Source of the DNA: Escherichia phage ZG49
DNA: 40,291 bases
Strand: one strand, 5' to 3'
Sequence record: NC_047777.1
Each line of letters starts with the position of its first letter. The first letter of the stretch is position 1. A program made the translations under genes and the position numbers. Shown here in pieces: positions 1 to 40,291 of the stretch. The notes below the pieces were generated by a model. The model was not told the origin of the DNA. It saw only the letters and a list, made by a program, of their open reading frames with translations, and ran no database searches.

Positions 1-401
1 CCTAAGGCTTGCACCGATGGAAGGAGGGTGATATTAATCATAATCCCTCCAATACAGATAGTCACCGACCATAGATACAGGAGGTATGTAGCATATGGCA
101 AAGACCAAAGCTGTACTTAAAGCTCTGGCGACCAATCGAGCTACATACAGGTTTCTTGCTGCTGTTCTACTTGCTGCTGGCGTTACTGCTGGAAGTAAGT
201 GGGTCGGGTGGGTCGAGACTCTCGTATGTTCTCTGGTGTCTCAGTGTAATTAACGCAATCATGGTAACGATTCATGAGCGGAAGACCTAAGGTCAGTACG
301 TGGATAAAGACTCACTCTACTGACCTTAGCTACTGTAGTCAAGGACTTTAGGTAACACCTTAATAGAAGCTCACCTAGGGTCATCCTACTTATTGGTCTA
401 T
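1..401. repeat. Left direct terminal repeat, identical to 39891-40291
   Basis: Bases 1-401 read identically to 39891-40291; window begins and ends exactly on the repeat; T7-like genomes carry direct terminal repeats. Confidence 0.8.
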
Positions 402-689
402 CCTAGTGTCGCCTGACCTACGGTCCTTGACCTACAGTAGCTGCCACCTACGGTCACTCGATGAGTTTTGGACCAAAAGTTTGAGACCACATCTCACAGT
501 TCAAGAACCTCAAGTCTCCCCATAGGCCCTCTTTAAGTCCAGACCAAAGGCCCTACCCCAGTCTATCATAAGGCTGGACCGATGGTCAAGACGTTAGGTC
601 AACGATAGGTCTAGGCTATGGCTGGAGGTCAGGACGATAGGTAGGGACTATGGGTCTGTCTCTGAGTCTCTATCTGTATAACCATAGGT

Positions 690-780
690 CCTACAACCTA
701 GTCCTACAACCTACAGTCCTACAACCTACAGTCCTACAACCTACAGTCCTACAACCTACAGTCCTACAACCTACAGTCTA
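690..780. repeat. Tandem array of about 6 copies of a 15-bp unit (GTCCTACAACCTACA) in the left-end non-coding region
   Basis: Direct reading: a 13-bp partial copy followed by five exact 15-bp copies; no spacers. Confidence 0.8.
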
Positions 781-947
781 ACTAACCTACAGTATCAACC
801 ATAAGACACCAACACCTACGGTCATAGACCCACAGTTAATAGACACAAAGCTATAGACTTAAGGTCTTAAACATGTTAGTCAAAGACTATATCCTATTAC
901 ACCATGGGGCCGACGATAGCTTAATCAATATTATTTAAGATTACCTA

Positions 948-976
948 TTGACTACAGGTCCAGACTATGGCTTAAT
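948..976 (+). promoter_or_regulatory. Candidate host sigma70 early promoter (A1-like): TTGACT, 17-nt spacer, CTTAAT, with AT-rich upstream stretch
   Basis: -35 TTGACT at 948-953; weak -10; AT-rich 925-947; position corresponds to T7 early promoter region. Confidence 0.3.
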
Positions 977-1088
977 AGCTTCCGTCAACACGACACGGCA
1001 ACAACCGGATAGTGAAGACGCCTGGTCATCCCGGTTAAGTAGACAGCCTGATAAGTCATACGAACAACAGGCAGATGACAGAAAGTAG

Positions 1089-1118
1089 TTGACAAGATGT
1101 ACCGACTTAAAGTAGTAT
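1089..1118 (+). promoter_or_regulatory. Candidate host sigma70 early promoter (T7 A3-like): TTGACA, 18 nt, TAGTAT
   Basis: TTGACA 1089-1094, TAGTAT 1113-1118, followed by GTACCACAT as downstream of T7 A3 (from memory). Confidence 0.5.
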
Positions 1119-1309
1119 GTACCACATCAACACGAAACAACGGTGACGACCAACACTGAAACGGTCTACCTGAAGTCCTCTGACTGAAGGGAATGCTCTT
1201 TAACAATCTGGATAAACTCTTAATGTGCGCCGATAGCGACTAACTACAGGGTCTTTGAGTCTACATCTGAAGGCCCTGACTGATAGTCACTAACTAAAGG
1301 ATAAACAAG

Positions 1310-1834
1310 ATGAAACTGATAGGCAAAGGCGCGTTCACTAAGTGCTACCTGAAGGATTGCGGAAAGCGTGTACTTCTGGTCTCTTCAGACCCAATCAAGG
1401 AGTGTATGGCGTGGGGATGGTTCCCTGAGTCTTCACTGTTCCCTGAAGTCAAGATGATTGAGGTGGGCACGTATGAGATGGACTACATGCCACCAACACG
1501 AGGTCTCAAGGCGCATTTAGATGACGACCAGTGGCAACTCTATCAGGTGCTGCGAGATTGCTTCTCACGGTCTCCGGTATTCTCTCGACCTGCTGACCTG
1601 TATCACAAGTGGTACGAGATATTCCAAGCTGCACACGACAGGTCTGAGACCGAGACTGTGCGGGAAGGTCTGATGGATGTACTGATGGCGCTGGACGCTT
1701 GCGCTAACTTCGGGTCTGACATTCAGTTTGAGATAAGCCCACGAAATGTACGGGCTGTGAATGGTAAGCTGATACTAGTGGATTGTTTCTTCCTTGTGTC
1801 CAAGCTGCCAGAGGTGAGGGCGTTAAGATGGTAA
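1310..1834 (+). CDS. gp0.7-like serine/threonine protein kinase (kinase domain only, 174 aa)
   Basis: Glycine-rich loop IGKGAFTKCY resembles T7 gp0.7 LGNGHFSAAY; further similarity (VLRDCF, ILVDCFF); RBS AAGGA upstream; first gene after early promoters. Confidence 0.7.
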   Translation: MKLIGKGAFTKCYLKDCGKRVLLVSSDPIKECMAWGWFPESSLFPEVKMIEVGTYEMDYMPPTRGLKAHLDDDQWQLYQVLRDCFSRSPVFSRPADLYHKWYEIFQAAHDRSETETVREGLMDVLMALDACANFGSDIQFEISPRNVRAVNGKLILVDCFFLVSKLPEVRALRW

Positions 1835-2289
1835 CTTATGGTCTCTGCCAGCACCACGTCACCAACGCCCGGCTTATGGTCGAGACCGGGCAGTTAGACC
1901 ACGAGATGACGACCAGTGGCAACTCTATCAGGTGCTGCGAGATTGCTTCTCACGGTCTCCGGTATTCTCTCGACCTGCTGACCTGTATCACAAGTGGTAC
2001 GAGATATTCCAAGCTGCACACGACAGGTCTGAGACCGAGACTGTGCGGGAAGGTCTGATGGATGTACTGATGGCGCTGGACGCTTGCGCTAACTTCGGGT
2101 CTGACATTCAGTTTGAGATAAGCCCACGAAATGTACGGGCTGTGAATGGTAAGCTGATACTAGTGGATTGTTTCTTCCTTGTGTCCAAGCTGCCAGAGGT
2201 GAGGGCGTTAAGATGGTAACTTATGGTCTCTGCCAGCACCACGTCACCAACGCCCGGCTTATGGTCGAGACCGGGCAGTTAGACCACGA
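1520..2289. repeat. Tandem duplication A: two identical 385-bp copies (1520-1904, 1905-2289)
   Basis: Direct reading; ORFs 1310-1834 and 1932-2219 share an identical C-terminal 95 aa; 1783-2058 and 2168-2362 share their N-terminus. Confidence 0.9.
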
Positions 2290-2362
2290 TTGGGCTATGC
2301 GTCTCTTGAAAGTGGTCTACAGGAGACGCAAGCGCATACACGATAGTTTACACACTGAGTGA
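2213..2362 (+). CDS. Small hypothetical protein (49 aa) overlapping kinase 3' end; start uncertain (track ORF begins at a TTG at 2168)
   Basis: ATG at 2213 preceded by GAGGTGAG; intact only in copy 2 of duplication A; copy at 1828 is chimeric. Confidence 0.3.
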   Translation: MVTYGLCQHHVTNARLMVETGQLDHDWAMRLLKVVYRRRKRIHDSLHTE

Positions 2363-2428
2363 TAGACGAGAGGTCATCGACTGATAGGTGGCCTCAAAGA
2401 TTATCACTTAAATTGATAGGAGTTAACT

Positions 2429-2596
2429 ATGAAATTTACAGGAATAGCACTTTACGTAACGATTATTATGGCGTGGCTGACTGCGGTATTCACTGATGGG
2501 AACGCATTACGACTAGGCTGGATGGCAGTGGATATTATCTTCTCTCCGGTAGGGGTCGTGCGGGGCATCTTGATGTGGTTTGGATTGGCGGGATAA
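2429..2596 (+). CDS. Small hydrophobic early protein (55 aa, predicted membrane peptide)
   Basis: ATG at 2429 with AGGAG RBS; hydrophobic sequence MKFTGIALYVTIIMAWLTAVF...; below the 60-aa cutoff of the ORF track. Confidence 0.4.
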   Translation: MKFTGIALYVTIIMAWLTAVFTDGNALRLGWMAVDIIFSPVGVVRGILMWFGLAG

Positions 2597-2599
2597 ACT

Positions 2600-2743
2600 A
2601 TGAGTGTGGGATATTTGGTATGCCTGTCTCCGGTCATCTTTCTGATAGCTTGGGGGATATACGATTGTATTAAACGGAAATCACGATTCATGTGCAACCT
2701 CGCGAACGTCTGGGATATAGCAACTATTGGGAGCAAACTGTAA
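2600..2743 (+). CDS. Small hydrophobic early protein (47 aa)
   Basis: ATG at 2600 directly after previous stop; stop overlaps next start (TAATG). Confidence 0.3.
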   Translation: MSVGYLVCLSPVIFLIAWGIYDCIKRKSRFMCNLANVWDIATIGSKL

Positions 2744-3069
2744 TGAATAAGTCATACGGGATTAATCTGGTACACTCTATGGATGCAGAAATGAACATGT
2801 TGAGCCTACTGGCTACAGGCTACCGTCACGGGACCTCAAGTCACACCATTCGTCAACAGCAGGAGCGCGACCGTGTACTTCAGGCACGACTCCGGGCAGA
2901 GGGCCATAAGTCCGAACTGATGTGTCTGGCGTATGGCGGACGACCGATCACTGACGATGGTAAACTTCTGGTATCAGGCTGGAAGGCGATAGACCAACGG
3001 TCAACCATCAAGCACACGACCAAAGGTGACTTCAGTCATCTTCACGCTAACCCACTGATATGCAAGTAA
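2743..3069 (+). CDS. Hypothetical early protein (109 aa)
   Basis: ATG at 2743 overlapping upstream stop; in frame with track ORF 2692-3069; no recognisable motif. Confidence 0.5.
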   Translation: MNKSYGINLVHSMDAEMNMLSLLATGYRHGTSSHTIRQQQERDRVLQARLRAEGHKSELMCLAYGGRPITDDGKLLVSGWKAIDQRSTIKHTTKGDFSHLHANPLICK

Positions 3070-3076
3070 TTATGAC

Positions 3077-3094
3077 TTAACTATCACTATAGGA
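3077..3094 (+). promoter_or_regulatory. Phage RNAP promoter TTAACTATCACTATAGGA, upstream of the RNAP gene
   Basis: Matches the 18-bp consensus found at 10 other intergenic sites; predicted +1 at the first G of TATAGG. Confidence 0.65.
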
Positions 3095-3166
3095 CTCAAG
3101 GTCTAAGACTCCAAGTGAAAGACCAAAGAGACTCTAAGTGAAAGACTAATAACAAGGACTTTAAGT

Positions 3167-5848
3167 ATGAGCGTCATCTCTATTGACAAACACGACTTCT
3201 CTGATGTGTCGAACGCCATTGAGCCGTTTAACCTGCTGGCTGACCACTACGGGCAAGACCTTGCAGTCAAACAGCTTCAGCTTGAGCATGAGGCATATAC
3301 AGAAGGCGAGCGACGTTTCATCAAGAACCTTGAGCGACAGACTGAGCGCGGGGAACTGGCAGACAATCAGGTCGCCAAGCCTTTGATGCAGACTCTGGTC
3401 CCTAAGATTGCGCAAGCCGTCAGGGAGTGGCACGAAGGCCTAGACGGGAAGCTGTCAACCTCGCGTCCTAGCGTAGCGTTCACCATGTTGAGCACTGAAG
3501 AGAAGGCCGTAAAGGACCGCTCTATGCGCATCTCCTGTGAGTCCGCTGCGGTTATCATACTGAAGGTCATACTCTCCAAGCTGGTCAAGCCTGAAGGGAT
3601 ACCGATTACACCGATGTCCTCCGCGATAGGTCGCACACTTGAGGACGAAATCCGCTTCGGTCGCATCCGTGACAAAGAGAAGGAGCACTTCAAGAAGACG
3701 ATAGCTGAGAACCTGAACAAGCGAGTTGGGGCATCCTACAAGAAAGCCTACATGCAAGCGGTCGAGGCGTCCATGCTGGAGCAAGGCCAACTGGAAGATG
3801 CATGGGGGACTTGGAGTCCTACAGAGGCTGTCCACGTTGGCATCAAGATGCTCGAGATTGTCATCCAGTCAACACAACTGGTCGAGCTTAAGCGGTACGG
3901 TGCTGGTAATGCAGCGGCTGACGTAGAGATGGTCCACCTGTCAGACTTCTGGGTCAAGAAGATGGCACAACGAGGATTCAGCCTTGCGGGTATCGCCCCA
4001 GTCTACCAGCCTTGCGTCGTTCCACCTAAGCCGTGGACTGGTGTCGTAGGTGGTGGGTACTGGGCCAAAGGTCGCAGACCGTTACCATTGATTCGCTTAG
4101 GGTCTAAGTCTGCGGTAGCACGTTATGAAGACGTATACATGCCTGAAGTCTATGACGCTGTGAACATCATTCAGAATACACCTTGGAAAGTTAACAAGAA
4201 GGTTCTGGACGTGGTGAACATGGTCGAGAAGTTGAACAACACGCCTATTGATGACATCCCTCAGATGGAACCGCTGAAGCCTGAGGACTATGCTGGTGAG
4301 ACCGAGGAGGAACTCAAGGCATGGAAGAAGGCTGCTGCTGGTATCTATCGCCGCGAGAAGGCCAGACAGTCACGCAGATTATCACTGAGCTTTATCGTTA
4401 ACCAAGCAAACAAGTTCTCTCAGTTCAAGACCATCTGGTTCCCGTACAACATGGATTGGCGTGGTCGTGTCTACGCTGTCCCGATGTTCAACCCTCAGGG
4501 TAACGACATGCAGAAGGGTCTCCTGACGCTGGCAGTCGGCAAGCCTATTGGTGCTGACGGTTTCAAATGGCTGAAGGTCCACGGTGCAAACTGTGCGGGT
4601 GTCGATAAAGTCACCTTCGATGAGCGCATCAAGTGGGTGGAAGACAACCACGAAAACATCATGGCTGCTGCTAAGGCACCGATGGATAGTATTGAGTGGT
4701 GGGGCAAGTTAGACTCTCCGTTCTGTTTCCTCGCGTTCTGCTTCGAGTATGCTGGCGTAATGCACCACGGCCTGTCTTACTCCTGCTCGCTGCCGATAGC
4801 GTTCGATGGGTCCTGCTCTGGTATTCAGCACTTCAGTGCGATGCTTCGTGACCACATCGGTGGACATTCAGTAAACCTGACGCCATCCGGTAAGGTACAA
4901 GACATCTACCGCATTGTGTCTGACCGCATTGAGGAGGAGCTTAAAGTCCTGCTGATTAACGGTACTGACAACGAGATGGTCACTCACGAGGATAAGAAAA
5001 CTGGTGAGATTACCGAACGTATCAAGCTGGGGACACGAGAGCTGGCCCGTCAGTGGCTGACATACGGTATGTCACGCAAGGTCACTAAGCGTTCAGTCAT
5101 GACTCTGGCATACGGGTCAAAAGAGTACGGCTTCGCAGACCAAGTTTACGAGGACATCGTGATGCCAGCGATTGACTCAGGGTCTGGCGCTATGTTCACT
5201 GAACCAAGCCAAGCGTCTCGCTTCATGGCAAAGATGATTTGGGAAGCTGTGAGTGTGACAGTAGTTGCTGCGGTTGACGCGATGAAGTGGCTTCAAGGTG
5301 CTGCCAAGCTGCTGGCTGCTGAGGTGAAGGACAAGAAGACTGGAGAAATCCTGAAGCCTTGCCTTCCGGTACACTGGGTCACACCTGATGGGTTCCCGGT
5401 CTGGCAGGAGTACCGCAAGAAGGATACCACTCGTCTGAACCTGATGTTCTTAGGGTCATTCAATCTTCAGCCTACCGTCAACAGAGGTACGAAGAAAGAG
5501 CTGGACAAGCACAAGCAGGAGTCAGGCATTAGCCCTAACTTCGTCCACTCACAAGATGGTAGCCACCTGCGGAAGACTGTAGTCCACACTCACCGCAAGT
5601 ATGGCGTGATGTCATTCGCAGTGATTCACGATAGCTTCGGGACCATCCCTGCTGACGCTGAGTATCTGTTCCGTGGTGTCCGTGAGACGATGGTCGAGAC
5701 ATACCGCGATAACGATGTGCTGCTTGACTTCTACGAGCAGTTTGAATACCAGCTTCATGAAAGCCAGCGCGACAAGTTGCCTGAGCTTCCGAAGAAAGGT
5801 AAACTGAATATCGAAGACATCTTGTCTTCAGACTTTGCATTCGCTTAA
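3167..5848 (+). CDS. Single-subunit DNA-directed RNA polymerase (gp1-like, 893 aa)
   Basis: Near-colinear similarity to T7 RNAP; C-terminus ...HSQDGSHLRKTVV...HDSFGT...SDFAFA matches the T7 C-terminus. Confidence 0.97.
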   Translation: MSVISIDKHDFSDVSNAIEPFNLLADHYGQDLAVKQLQLEHEAYTEGERRFIKNLERQTERGELADNQVAKPLMQTLVPKIAQAVREWHEGLDGKLSTSRPSVAFTMLSTEEKAVKDRSMRISCESAAVIILKVILSKLVKPEGIPITPMSSAIGRTLEDEIRFGRIRDKEKEHFKKTIAENLNKRVGASYKKAYMQAVEASMLEQGQLEDAWGTWSPTEAVHVGIKMLEIVIQSTQLVELKRYGAGNAAADVEMVHLSDFWVKKMAQRGFSLAGIAPVYQPCVVPPKPWTGVVGGGYWAKGRRPLPLIRLGSKSAVARYEDVYMPEVYDAVNIIQNTPWKVNKKVLDVVNMVEKLNNTPIDDIPQMEPLKPEDYAGETEEELKAWKKAAAGIYRREKARQSRRLSLSFIVNQANKFSQFKTIWFPYNMDWRGRVYAVPMFNPQGNDMQKGLLTLAVGKPIGADGFKWLKVHGANCAGVDKVTFDERIKWVEDNHENIMAAAKAPMDSIEWWGKLDSPFCFLAFCFEYAGVMHHGLSYSCSLPIAFDGSCSGIQHFSAMLRDHIGGHSVNLTPSGKVQDIYRIVSDRIEEELKVLLINGTDNEMVTHEDKKTGEITERIKLGTRELARQWLTYGMSRKVTKRSVMTLAYGSKEYGFADQVYEDIVMPAIDSGSGAMFTEPSQASRFMAKMIWEAVSVTVVAAVDAMKWLQGAAKLLAAEVKDKKTGEILKPCLPVHWVTPDGFPVWQEYRKKDTTRLNLMFLGSFNLQPTVNRGTKKELDKHKQESGISPNFVHSQDGSHLRKTVVHTHRKYGVMSFAVIHDSFGTIPADAEYLFRGVRETMVETYRDNDVLLDFYEQFEYQLHESQRDKLPELPKKGKLNIEDILSSDFAFA

Positions 5849-39890: not shown

Positions 39891-40291
39891 CCTAAGGCTT
39901 GCACCGATGGAAGGAGGGTGATATTAATCATAATCCCTCCAATACAGATAGTCACCGACCATAGATACAGGAGGTATGTAGCATATGGCAAAGACCAAAG
40001 CTGTACTTAAAGCTCTGGCGACCAATCGAGCTACATACAGGTTTCTTGCTGCTGTTCTACTTGCTGCTGGCGTTACTGCTGGAAGTAAGTGGGTCGGGTG
40101 GGTCGAGACTCTCGTATGTTCTCTGGTGTCTCAGTGTAATTAACGCAATCATGGTAACGATTCATGAGCGGAAGACCTAAGGTCAGTACGTGGATAAAGA
40201 CTCACTCTACTGACCTTAGCTACTGTAGTCAAGGACTTTAGGTAACACCTTAATAGAAGCTCACCTAGGGTCATCCTACTTATTGGTCTAT
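39891..40291. repeat. Right direct terminal repeat, identical to 1-401
   Basis: Direct comparison of both ends. Confidence 0.8.

Follow-up and report, generated by a model that had tools for sequence, protein, structure and literature searches.

Conserved early genes directly upstream of the RNA polymerase gene of phage ZG49: catalogued, uncharacterised families, one of them reduced to an in-frame fusion

Of all lytic phages, the T7-like ones are best understood, and several of the genes that they express first are, to our knowledge, still without a function. Within this group, members of the genus Kayfunavirus are widely used in work on phage therapy, against K1 and other E. coli, Salmonella Typhi and Enterobacter. 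The early region of the Kayfunavirus ZG49 raises the question directly: what are the small genes that separate its first early gene from the RNA polymerase gene, and what could they contribute to infection? We analyzed the complete sequence of 40,291 nucleotides (NC_047777.1; hereafter, the window) and list the features of the region in Table 1. A previous sequence-only reading had reported two small hydrophobic peptides of 55 and 47 aa and a third protein of 109 aa between the first gene and the polymerase. Both peptide ORFs were confirmed, with two and one hydrophobic segments, respectively, and the third ORF was found where expected, although its product has 108 aa, as the larger figure counts the stop codon. 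The inventory was therefore right in its three ORFs, but it omitted the intact 49-aa gene and the 385-bp duplication that precede them.

Table 1. Features of the ZG49 early region (window positions).
Feature	Position	Strand	Description
Sigma-70-type early promoter candidate	1089..1118	+	TTGACA, 18 nt, TAGTAT; 5' of the first early gene
First early gene, p174 (ZG49 gp01)	1310..1834	+	174 aa; slot of Ocr in most relatives
Perfect tandem duplication, 385-bp unit	1519-1903 and 1904-2288		Copies identical
49-aa gene (K1F gp0.35), intact copy	2213-2362	+	Remote T7 gp0.4 homologue; PHROG 5058
Conserved R0.5-like hairpin	2357-2409	+	Homologous to the T7 gene 0.4-0.5 intergenic region
Early gene block	2429-3069	+	Distal portion of the ZG49 class I (early) operon (Kayfunavirus)
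Gene 0.36 (ZG49 gp03)	2429-2596	+	55 aa, two hydrophobic helices
47-aa chimeric ORF	2600-2743	+	orf29 codons 1-28 and last 19 codons of gene 0.37
Gene 0.38 (ZG49 gp04)	2743-3069	+	108 aa, basic, helical, soluble
Phage-RNA-polymerase promoter	3075..3097	+	Core ACTATCACTATAGG at 3080-3093; between gene 0.38 and gene 1; outer limits inferred from the T7 -17 to +6 convention
Gene 1, T7-type single-subunit RNA polymerase	3167-5848	+	893 aa; right-hand boundary of the block; from the ORF list

The ORFs of the block correspond to genes 0.36, 0.37 and 0.38 of phage K1F, names that come from the K1F and CLB_P1 records and that denote "hypothetical" products in more than 200 genomes. The same families occur in the same order directly 5' of gene 1 in K1F, CLB_P1, EcoDS1, Dev2 and CR8, and the homologues of gene 1 carry an RNA polymerase annotation in relatives. 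The block's genes are real and conserved rather than chance ORFs, as each matches a PHROG family and these families are under purifying selection across relatives, with pN/pS values of 0.18 (0.36), 0.25 (orf29, a small gene described below), 0.36 (0.37) and 0.21 (0.38). Shine-Dalgarno sequences and stop/start coupling contexts are also seen in the block. We rejected a minus-strand ORF of 94 aa (2452-2736), since the conserved genes are all on the plus strand and the signal of purifying selection lies in plus-strand frames. Because the families were already catalogued as K1F genes 0.36 to 0.38, the block is ordinary rather than new, and what follows re-describes catalogued hypothetical genes. 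Searches of Pfam, NCBIfam and PADLOC returned zero matches for any of the three products, and PDB and fold searches gave no match that would assign a function. Our literature search found no paper that mentions gp0.36, gp0.37 or gp0.38, nor are they discussed in the ZG49 genome note. The earlier description of the block as uncharacterised thus holds, in that no characterised homologue was found by sequence, profile or fold.

The distribution of these families is limited to T7-like phages, and within these limits their presence varies. Among the 30 related loci that we mapped, genes 0.36 and orf29 are variously present, absent or both present, and one locus (L023) lacks 0.36, orf29 and 0.37 altogether. 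Natural lesions were also found, namely an in-frame stop early in gene 0.38 of K1F and a frameshift in gene 0.36 of MopsHU1. The block genes are dispensable in natural variants.

The gene that opens the early region had been read from the sequence as a kinase placed where T7 carries the acidic protein Ocr. A confident structure model of its product, p174, shows a minimal protein-kinase-like fold, and p174 resembles T7 gp0.7 in this predicted fold, in the Gly-loop GxGxF(S/T)xxY and in a catalytic-loop pattern that reads FDMHSGN in T7 gp0.7 and FEISPRN in p174. Unlike kinases, however, p174 has Glu at the position of the catalytic Asp, and it occupies the gene 0.3 slot, whereas T7 gp0.7 lies in the 0.7 slot. 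T7 gp0.7 matches PHROG 2828, 15752 and 18305, none of which is matched by p174 at E<=0.1, and an hhalign comparison of the two proteins aligned 18 Gly-loop columns with a probability of 6.5%. By sequence, p174 is not detectable as a relative of T7 gp0.7; the kinase assignment agrees with the predicted fold and motifs and finds no counterpart in family models, so we refer to p174 as a putative kinase. The claim that there is no Ocr-type first gene was borne out, as a tblastn search of the whole window with K1F Ocr (E<=1e-3) found no homologue, and Ocr was found in 17 related loci. In most Kayfunavirus Ocr (gp0.3) is the first early gene, directly before gp0.35, which is the place of p174 in ZG49; among the related loci the first-gene slot varies and holds Ocr, p174 or a kinase. 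The block products themselves have isoelectric points of 8.3, 9.0 and 9.5, none of them acidic, compared with 4.1 for Ocr.

The perfect tandem duplication takes in the last two-thirds of the p174 gene together with the first half of the 49-aa gene; it repeats the p174 gene in part and creates a chimeric ORF of 76 aa. Neither the 50,697 phage records searched nor IMG/VR contain its junction, and the 76-aa chimera is absent from a collection of 15 billion proteins. The duplication could have arisen recently or as an artefact of assembly, a point to which we return below.

The 49-aa gene lies 5' of the block and outside it. Its product matches PHROG 5058 (E=8e-25) and, more weakly, the T7 gp0.4 family PHROG 7202 (E=1.2e-3), while T7 gp0.4 reciprocally matches PHROG 5058 at E=9e-5. 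BLASTP gave 37% identity to T7 gp0.4 (E=0.011) and 38% to K11 gp0.4 (E=1e-4). T7 gp0.4 is an inhibitor of FtsZ (PMC9372555). The length and position of the two genes agree. The hairpin that follows folds with -18.6 kcal/mol (z=-2.85) and aligns with T7 1428-1479 (z=-3.6), with which it shares a stem/internal-loop/stem fold; in the upper stem the T7 and ZG49 sequences differ and both still pair. We found this hairpin at 23 places, in 15 sequence variants, in the window and the scanned loci, T7 and CR8 included. In T7, R0.5 was reportedly described as an RNase III site by Dunn and Studier in 1983. By analogy, the ZG49 hairpin would mark the 5' edge of the mRNA segment that carries the block. An Rfam scan of positions 1-3400 found nothing.

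The block lies in the early operon, as it follows the gp0.4-like gene and a hairpin that aligns to the T7 0.4-0.5 intergenic region. A candidate sigma-70-type promoter, with 10 of 12 consensus matches in a region whose count of such sites is not above chance, was retained because of its position 5' of the first early gene and its analogy to the T7 A promoters. A phage promoter lies at the other end of the block. Its core has eight exact occurrences on the plus strand, all intergenic and spread through the genome, and 15 matches with <=3 mismatches, compared with 3.0 expected. The promoter region is identical in SH4, YZ1 and MopsHU1, and a predicted promoter is annotated at the same place in CR8. 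Both the hairpin and this promoter had been overlooked in the sequence-only reading. We discarded an R1-type RNase III site between 0.38 and gene 1, since this segment folds no better than its shuffled versions (z=-1.0) and bears no evident resemblance to the T7 R1 region.

Gene 0.36 is the first gene past the hairpin and is preceded at 7 nt by the Shine-Dalgarno sequence AGGAG. Its product matches PHROG 7319 with E=8.9e-25, residues 1-54 covering the 54-position profile, and is 78-91% identical to its counterparts in K1F, SH4, CLB_P1 and PE3-1 (78% in K1F). The family comprises 50 phage records, and 19 clusters among 5.8 billion proteins. Hydropathy peaks at residues 3-21 and 36-54. T7 gp0.5 (47 aa) is likewise the first cistron after the R0.5 hairpin, very hydrophobic and of similar size; however, the two proteins share no detectable sequence similarity and belong to different PHROGs (16572 for T7 gp0.5), so we keep gp0.5 as a positional counterpart only.

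The second ORF of the block, which had been taken for a normal small gene, proved to be a deletion-derived fusion rather than the representative of a family of its own. In BLASTP its residues 1-28 correspond to orf29 of Bas105 and residues 28-47 to the C-terminus of K1F gp0.37, and the DNA alignment with ST31 and Bas105 shows a 140-bp gap in ZG49. A 140-bp deletion that is unique to the ZG49 genome produced this 47-aa ORF by joining two genes in frame. In ZG49, codons 1-46 of gene 0.37, including the conserved core of gp0.37, are gone and the rest is fused to orf29. The upstream partner, orf29 (Bas105_0011 type; 89 records), normally encodes a single-helix membrane peptide of about 29 aa, M(S/N)(V/I)G(Y/H)WVCL(A/S)PVI...DCIKRKSL, just 5' of gene 0.37; the ZG49 version is 79% identical to that of Bas105 over residues 1-28, and it has lost its natural stop and gained 19 foreign residues. 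The downstream partner, gene 0.37, is found in about 214 records and is near-universal in Kayfunavirus. The full-length gp0.37 is a homologue of K11 gp0.6A (65 aa; 43% identity over 63 residues): both are products of early genes, in which an N-terminal hydrophobic helix is followed by a basic region with RxTVRxPNGRF. ZG49 retains the last 19 residues of this family only. Members of the gp0.37 family have an N-terminal transmembrane helix and the basic core KARKVYKFNYVRLGRWTVRQPNGRF, and the 47-aa ORF lacks this combination and matches PHROG 2385 over residues 25-46 only, at profile positions 48-69 of 70. It is, thus, a gp0.37 remnant fused to orf29 and not a member of the K1F gp0.37/K11 gp0.6A family (PHROG 2385). 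Despite its name, the K11 gp0.6A family is unrelated to T7 gp0.6A (PHROG 8393; no similarity). T7 gp0.6 is an inhibitor of MreB; a relationship of gp0.37 to it was also discarded, as the two fall in different PHROGs and do not align.

It is possible, though we rather doubt it, that the 47-aa ORF is a non-functional leftover and that both the 140-bp deletion and the 385-bp duplication are assembly or laboratory variants. The deletion junction, like that of the duplication, occurs in no other record or viral contig searched, the exact 47-aa protein, like the 76-aa chimera, is missing from the 15-billion-protein collection, and the part lost includes the conserved core of gp0.37. The assembly also has its oddities. 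According to the ZG49 genome paper, it was built from MiSeq reads with SPAdes plus GapFiller; besides the perfect duplication, its termini are mis-set, as the stated 401-bp terminal repeat disagrees with the genome ends of K1F, SH4 and MopsHU1, which fall at window position 492 when aligned. Nevertheless, the deletion joins two overlapping reading frames exactly in phase (140 = 3 x 46 + 2), and short-read assemblers seldom make clean deletions without flanking repeats. It also leaves in place the start context of orf29 and, at the 3' end, the ribosome-binding site of gene 0.38, as one would expect of a viable natural variant. The deletion could still be a laboratory or assembly variant, and the chimera may be functionless, but such an origin would leave genes 0.36 and 0.38 untouched, as both are intact.

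The start of gene 0.38 overlaps the preceding stop in the sequence TAATG (2740-2745); both such an overlap and the place directly 5' of the promoter and gene 1 were seen in ZG49 and in all 30 mapped loci. An upstream GTG start at 2692, which would give 125 aa, was discarded, since relatives use the ATG at 2743 and a GGGAG site lies upstream of it. The product, a protein of 12 kDa with a pI of 9.5 and an arginine-rich helix, matches PHROG 7066 with E=1.5e-45. The family is present in 222 phage records, 167 of which match over >=80% of the length, and in 151 clusters; an HMMER profile search of 1.84 billion proteins returned 13 representatives at 50% identity, all of them small proteins of the same family. 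ZG49 gp0.38 shows all 20 invariant columns of the family alignment, whose conserved features are a core, ERD..LQ.RL.AEG...DDGKLL..G.KA..., and a C-terminal tail, HTTxGDF(S/T)HL. Its K1F counterpart is 88% identical over residues 41-108, and that of CR8 carries an internal duplication of 17 aa. In Dev2 only TTKGDFSHLHANPLICK is retained, on a different N-terminal part, and distant representatives retain T(T/E)xGDF(S/T)HL; because the motif persists in both, the tail may behave as a module. Synonymous divergence drops toward the 3' end of the gene (pS from 0.44 to 0.19), so the conservation of the tail may in part reflect recombination or nucleotide-level constraint near the control region of gene 1.

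The AlphaFold2 model of gp0.38 contains four helices with moderate confidence (pLDDT 68.5), the conserved tail scoring about 50. No PDB sequence was recovered by a profile search (best E 0.46), Foldseek with the model had no PDB match at E<=0.001, and in BFVD the matches were limited to the protein's own family. When all 32 aligned members were compared with Pfam at E<=10, only scattered chance matches appeared, in the insert of the 130-139-aa variants. We also considered a His3Cys zinc site (H91, H99, H101, C107) and rejected it, as the largest cluster (P0003, 405 members) has other residues in place of H99 and C107, and CR8, P0032 and P0114 have them in place of C107 or H101.

What, then, could the block do? 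The membrane or soluble character of its products and its place in the early operon are observed; RNase III processing, translation and a host-directed role we infer. In the model that we propose, host RNA polymerase would transcribe the block from the left-end promoters, by analogy with T7, and the transcript would probably be cut at the R0.5-type hairpin, after which three coupled cistrons would be translated. Gene 0.36 would yield a two-helix inner-membrane peptide of 55 aa, the second cistron the 47-aa single-helix chimera left after most of gene 0.37 was deleted, and gene 0.38 a basic helical cytoplasmic protein with the conserved tail as its likely interaction surface. These would be lineage-restricted accessory proteins, each most likely binding a host component in the first minutes of infection, with the inner membrane as the site of action of the peptides and a cytoplasmic target for gp0.38. 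Taken as a whole, this account of R0.5-type processing, three coupled cistrons and dispensable accessory proteins that act early on the host is the one we favor, with fair but not high confidence. Position in the early operon makes a host-takeover or anti-defence role a reasonable prior, and our homologue and structural-analogue searches linked none of the three products to a host target.

A more specific proposal is that the block is a counter-defence island, in which at least one product inhibits host immunity, be it restriction, abortive infection or a membrane-bound effector. Such a function would explain the cassette-like gain and loss of genes between close phages. Gene content is indeed mosaic between genomes with about 90-97% identity over the block region, the neighboring first-gene slot is occupied by the anti-restriction DNA mimic Ocr in some phages and by p174 or a kinase in others, and in T7-like phages the early genes are the first to enter the cell and to be expressed. 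However, the block products have no similarity to solved anti-defence proteins in PDB sequence and Foldseek searches, and PADLOC gave no matches, with a library that holds defence rather than anti-defence proteins. Moreover, genes 0.37 and 0.38 are near-universal in the genus (about 214 and 222 records) and not sporadic, so a core takeover role fits them better than that of an arms-race accessory. We consider the counter-defence proposal unlikely.

Somewhat less probable still is that gp0.38 works on its own in place of the basic C-terminal domain by which T7-type gp0.7 shuts off host transcription, binding host RNA polymerase or an associated factor and aiding the switch to the phage enzyme. 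Host shut-off maps to the C-terminal part of gp0.7, and gp0.38 lies immediately 5' of gene 1, a place that in T7 and K11 belongs to the 3' part of gene 0.7; it has an arginine-rich helix and is basic, as is the gp0.7 C-terminal part. T7 gp0.7 (359 aa) and K11 gp0.7 (334 aa) have the basic C-terminal region, and both phages lack gp0.38; K11 differs from ZG49 in this absence and in its full-length gp0.7. Conversely, every gp0.38-bearing genome that we examined has either no 0.7-type kinase or a kinase-only version of 242-244 aa that lacks that region (CR8, Dev2, L014, L015, L019-L021 and L024). In the Teseptimavirus CHRF_10027, the C-terminal part of gp0.7 is even a separate ORF of 104 aa directly 5' of gene 1. 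Nevertheless, this complementary distribution tracks phage lineage and is perhaps a coincidence, and the profile search of 1.84 billion proteins with gp0.38 recovered no gp0.7-like protein. Homology of gp0.38 to T7 gp0.7 or to the CHRF_10027 stand-alone ORF was rejected, as we found no similarity, with hhalign probabilities of 0.2% and 0.06%, respectively. A broader form of the proposal strikes us as equally improbable, namely that gp0.38 is a new small host-takeover factor whose tail docks on a host machine, most plausibly that of transcription, as the Kayfunavirus/Caroctavirus replacement for gp0.7 shut-off, with the upstream peptides being separate and envelope-directed.

That the membrane peptides (0.36, orf29 and 0.37) serve superinfection exclusion or an inner-membrane change of the envelope, for example by blocking DNA entry of a second phage or interfering with division or cell-wall synthesis, much as small membrane proteins do in other phages, also seems improbable: they are small, have one or two helices, are expressed early and have a relative of the FtsZ inhibitor gp0.4 as a neighbor, with 0.36 in the slot of the equally hydrophobic T7 gp0.5, but the argument is purely one of analogy, the peptides are unrelated in sequence to T7 gp0.5 and to characterised exclusion proteins, and ZG49 lacks most of 0.37 and other phages 0.36 or orf29, without a known consequence.

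For the model of early accessory proteins that we favor, the locus offers several experimental handles: a gp0.38 tail that can be deleted, a positional framework relative to T7, and a set of natural knock-outs, comprising ZG49 without gp0.37, other phages without 0.36 or orf29, and K1F with its stop in 0.38. If the shut-off proposal were true, gp0.38 would stand in where 0.7-type kinases lack the shut-off domain or are missing. The host targets of genes 0.37 and 0.38, once known, would fill a gap in the takeover programme of these phages.

The block between the first early gene, whose 174-aa product we call p174, and the RNA polymerase gene (gene 1) of ZG49 contains three open reading frames, which the sequence-only reading had located correctly, although the last product measures 108 aa plus the stop and not 109 aa. 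The products have no matches in Pfam, NCBIfam, or PADLOC. The homology check proposed in that reading did return PHROGs families, namely phrog_7319 for the 55-aa product, phrog_7066 for the 108-aa product, and phrog_2385 for the 47-aa product (through its final 22 residues only), but all are of unknown function and none supplied a characterized relative. The names 0.36, 0.37, and 0.38 are used in the second K1F record and in that of CLB_P1, and 0.38 also in EcoDS1, Dev2, and CR8; in ZG49, exact matches identify p174 as gp01, the 55-aa product as gp03, and the 108-aa product as gp04. Pooled pN/pS values in related genomes were 0.18 for 0.36, 0.25 for orf29 (the gene for a 29-aa membrane peptide), 0.36 for 0.37, and 0.21 for 0.38, and therefore these reading frames are maintained as proteins. 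The translation starts in the block are plausible: AGGAG lies ahead of gene 0.36, the 47-aa ORF begins with a stop-N3-ATG coupling, and gene 0.38 has GGGAG and a TAATG overlap.

The 47-aa ORF is, by sequence comparison, a fusion. Its residues 1-28 match the single-helix peptide gene orf29 (annotated in Bas105, also present in ST31 and PE3-1), and its final 19 residues correspond to the gp0.37 C-terminus. In ST31 and PE3-1 the genes are ordered 0.36, orf29, 0.37, 0.38, which is presumably the ancestral arrangement, and DNA alignment with ST31 and Bas105 revealed a 140-bp gap in the window, which starts just ahead of the stop of orf29 and reaches codon 47 of gene 0.37. The join is in frame because orf29 and gene 0.37 overlap out of frame (ATGA) and the deletion comprises 140 bp (3 x 46 + 2). 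The deletion has thus cost ZG49 the transmembrane helix and the basic core that are conserved in gp0.37; the chimera consists of a single hydrophobic helix, a short basic stretch, and a conserved tail. The 3′ end of gene 0.37, with the gene 0.38 ribosome-binding site, is retained. We found neither the fusion junction in other phage records or IMG/VR contigs nor the 47-aa protein in a collection of 15 billion proteins.

The parental families are widespread. We identified gp0.38 in 222 phage records, essentially all from Kayfunavirus, plus CR8. In a collection of 5.8 billion proteins this family forms 151 clusters (90% identity), and in one of 1.84 billion it has 13 representatives (50% identity). 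We found gp0.36 in 50 records (19 clusters among the 5.8 billion), orf29 in 89, and gp0.37 in about 214 at ≥80% identity, with about 283 distant copies, mostly from Klebsiella phages. The counterpart of these distant copies is K11 gp0.6A (43% identity, full length). We rejected the assignment of gp0.37 to the T7 gp0.6 family, as PHROG matches and alignment set the K11 gp0.6A family apart from it. When reference proteins were mapped to 30 related loci, 0.36 and orf29 occurred either alone, together, or not at all, and one related genome (L023) lacks 0.36, orf29, and 0.37. Moreover, gene 0.36 of MopsHU1 is frameshifted, gene 0.38 of K1F has an in-frame stop close to its start, and gene 0.38 of CR8 contains a 17-aa internal tandem duplication.

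Features of the ZG49 early region and of related loci (L numbers denote the related loci)
Genome	Feature	Coordinates	Remark
ZG49	terminal repeat of the record	1-401 = 39891-40291	401 bp
ZG49	52-aa conserved ORF	95-253	entirely inside the terminal repeat; phrog_2193
ZG49	15-bp direct-repeat array	650-800	AGTCCTACAACCTAC
ZG49	p174 gene	1310-1834 (+)	
ZG49	tandem duplication	1519-1903 and 1904-2288	385-bp unit
ZG49	76-aa chimeric ORF	1828-2058	duplication by-product
ZG49	49-aa gene	2213-2362	conserved; remote T7 gp0.4 homologue
ZG49	R0.5-type hairpin	2357-2409	spacer
ZG49	gene 0.36	2429-2596 (+)	55 aa
ZG49	chimeric ORF	2600-2743 (+)	47 aa
ZG49	gene 0.38	2743-3069 (+)	108 aa
ZG49	phage promoter	3075-3097	core ACTATCACTATAGG at 3080-3093
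ZG49	gene 1	3167-5848 (+)	RNA polymerase
T7	hairpin counterpart	L004:1428-1479	between genes 0.4 and 0.5
CR8	hairpin, two copies	L006:1762-1813, 2555-2608	
MopsHU1	gene 0.36	L003:1542-1702	frameshift
K1F	gene 0.38	L005:2208-2468	in-frame stop
CR8	gene 0.38	L006:2932-3288	internal duplication
CHRF_10027	104-aa ORF	L034:2378-2692	gp0.7 C-terminal part

The ORFs listed earlier between the first gene and the polymerase gene are real, but the list omitted a 49-aa gene and a perfect tandem duplication located between the first gene and the block. In the duplication, the 174-aa gene stays intact in its first copy and the 49-aa gene in its second, and a chimeric ORF and a start-less copy of p174 residues 71-174 are generated. 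We found the duplication junction in none of 50,697 phage records and nowhere in IMG/VR; the duplication may have arisen recently or may be an artefact of assembly. The 49-aa gene shows reciprocal PHROG cross-matches with T7 gp0.4 and 37-38% identity to T7 and K11 gp0.4; since its product is missing from the ZG49 protein collection, it appears to be unannotated. T7 gp0.4 is an FtsZ inhibitor, and K1F infection is reported to cause FtsZ mislocalisation (PMC9372555). The spacer 3′ of this gene forms a stem/internal-loop/stem hairpin (z=-2.85) that aligns base for base with its T7 counterpart and is found at the same position in Kayfunavirus loci. The R0.5 RNase III site is located in the T7 gene 0.4-0.5 interval (Dunn and Studier 1983). 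On this alignment, gene 0.36 is therefore the cistron that directly follows an R0.5-type site, the position occupied in T7 by gene 0.5; gp0.5 and gp0.36 are both very hydrophobic and alike in size, yet share no detectable similarity. The hairpin marks the border at which genomes differ in their early gene cassettes, and thus may also be a recombination joint. At the other end of the block, 3′ of gene 0.38, lies a phage promoter whose core recurs along the + strand, with 8 exact copies genome-wide (15 matches with ≤3 mismatches, against 3.0 expected); its sequence is invariant in relatives, and in CR8 it is annotated as a predicted promoter. Whereas the corresponding T7 site carries a host promoter alone, ZG49 has a phage-RNA-polymerase promoter directly upstream of its own gene 1, which implies positive feedback on gene 1.

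Across positions 1200-3200, identity to Kayfunavirus genomes, for instance those of Citrobacter phage SH4 and Escherichia phage YZ1, is 92-97%, and the phage is classified as Kayfunavirus ZG49, Studiervirinae. Its genome note reports MiSeq reads, assembly with SPAdes and GapFiller, and 44 ORFs, and does not discuss the block genes. When aligned to ZG49, K1F, SH4, and MopsHU1 each have their left end at window position 492 (TCTCACAGTT...), and SH4 and MopsHU1 are annotated with terminal repeats of about 191-195 bp, so the termini of the ZG49 record look mis-set; its 401-bp repeat is probably an assembly overlap. The TCTCACAGTT start resembles the T7 left end. A direct-repeat array lies upstream of the early promoters, in non-coding DNA of the left end.

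Regarding the remaining products, gp0.36 has hydrophobic segments at residues 3-21 and 36-54, a conserved loop DGNALRLGW, and the motif FSPVG(V/I)VRG. The basic gp0.38 (pI 9.5, net charge +5) was modeled with AlphaFold from 32 sequences, giving helices at 9-25, 36-52, 56-63, and 71-88 and a mean pLDDT of 68.5 (86-88 for residues 41-80, about 50 for the tail, 89-108); we found no resembling structure, solved or predicted, outside the family. Its N-terminal 24 residues are variable or missing, and size variants of 83-87 aa and, with an insert, 130-139 aa exist. The tail behaves as a module: the 70-aa Dev2 protein retains just TTKGDFSHLHANPLICK, attached to a helical N-terminal part that is unrelated, and T(T/E)xGDF(S/T)HL persists in the most distant representatives. 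Toward the 3′ end pS drops from 0.44 to 0.19 while pN/pS remains at 0.2-0.3; these values clearly point to protein-level selection, and the conservation probably also owes something to recombination close to the gene 1 control region. We consider it improbable that gp0.38 is a stand-in for the basic C-terminal region of T7-type gp0.7, with which it has no sequence similarity. The 0.7-type kinases found beside gp0.38 are all 242-244 aa long and without that region, present in T7 gp0.7 (359 aa) and K11 gp0.7 (334 aa), and many gp0.38 genomes have no such kinase; nevertheless, this pattern may merely track lineage. In the Teseptimavirus CHRF_10027, a Salmonella phage, the C-terminal part of gp0.7 has an ORF of its own, which is like gp0.38 in position, size, and basic character. 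That ORF has a GTG start and lies directly upstream of gene 1, with no preceding kinase domain.

Finally, no Ocr homologue was found anywhere in the window; the sequence-only reading had noted the lack of an Ocr-like first gene. Most genomes carry Ocr in the first-gene slot, and the others p174 (ZG49, SH4, YZ1, ST31, and GA2A) or a T7-0.7-like kinase. p174, which had been called a kinase, matches only phrog_11084 (function unknown) and nothing in Pfam; its family comprises 36 Kayfunavirus records and members in Dickeya, Klebsiella, Ralstonia, Cellulophaga, and Pseudomonas phages, a few of whose records say serine/threonine kinase. Its AlphaFold model is very confident (pLDDT 95.7, pTM 0.89) and resembles a minimal protein kinase, with Glu at the catalytic Asp position. 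The invariant residues are G5 and G7 of a Gly-loop, K30-E31, an ExSPRN loop (141-146), and D158, and the spacing of loop and D158 is that of a kinase catalytic loop and metal-binding Asp. In a non-significant alignment with CK2-alpha they fall on HRDxKPxN. Given the confident model and this spacing, yet no detectable relation to T7 gp0.7, we accept a predicted kinase-like fold and reject p174 as a gp0.7 homologue. p174 occupies the exact Ocr slot of most Kayfunavirus genomes, and its family extends across unrelated phage groups; it may be an alternative leading-edge counter-defence enzyme. Taken together, the original observation is real and its inventory incomplete: it is a correct yet partial account of already catalogued hypothetical early genes, and we see no sign of a new kind of system. 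What the present analysis adds is the fusion origin of the 47-aa ORF, a positional framework taken from T7, the conserved gp0.38 tail, and predicted-fold support for p174 as a minimal kinase at the position of Ocr.
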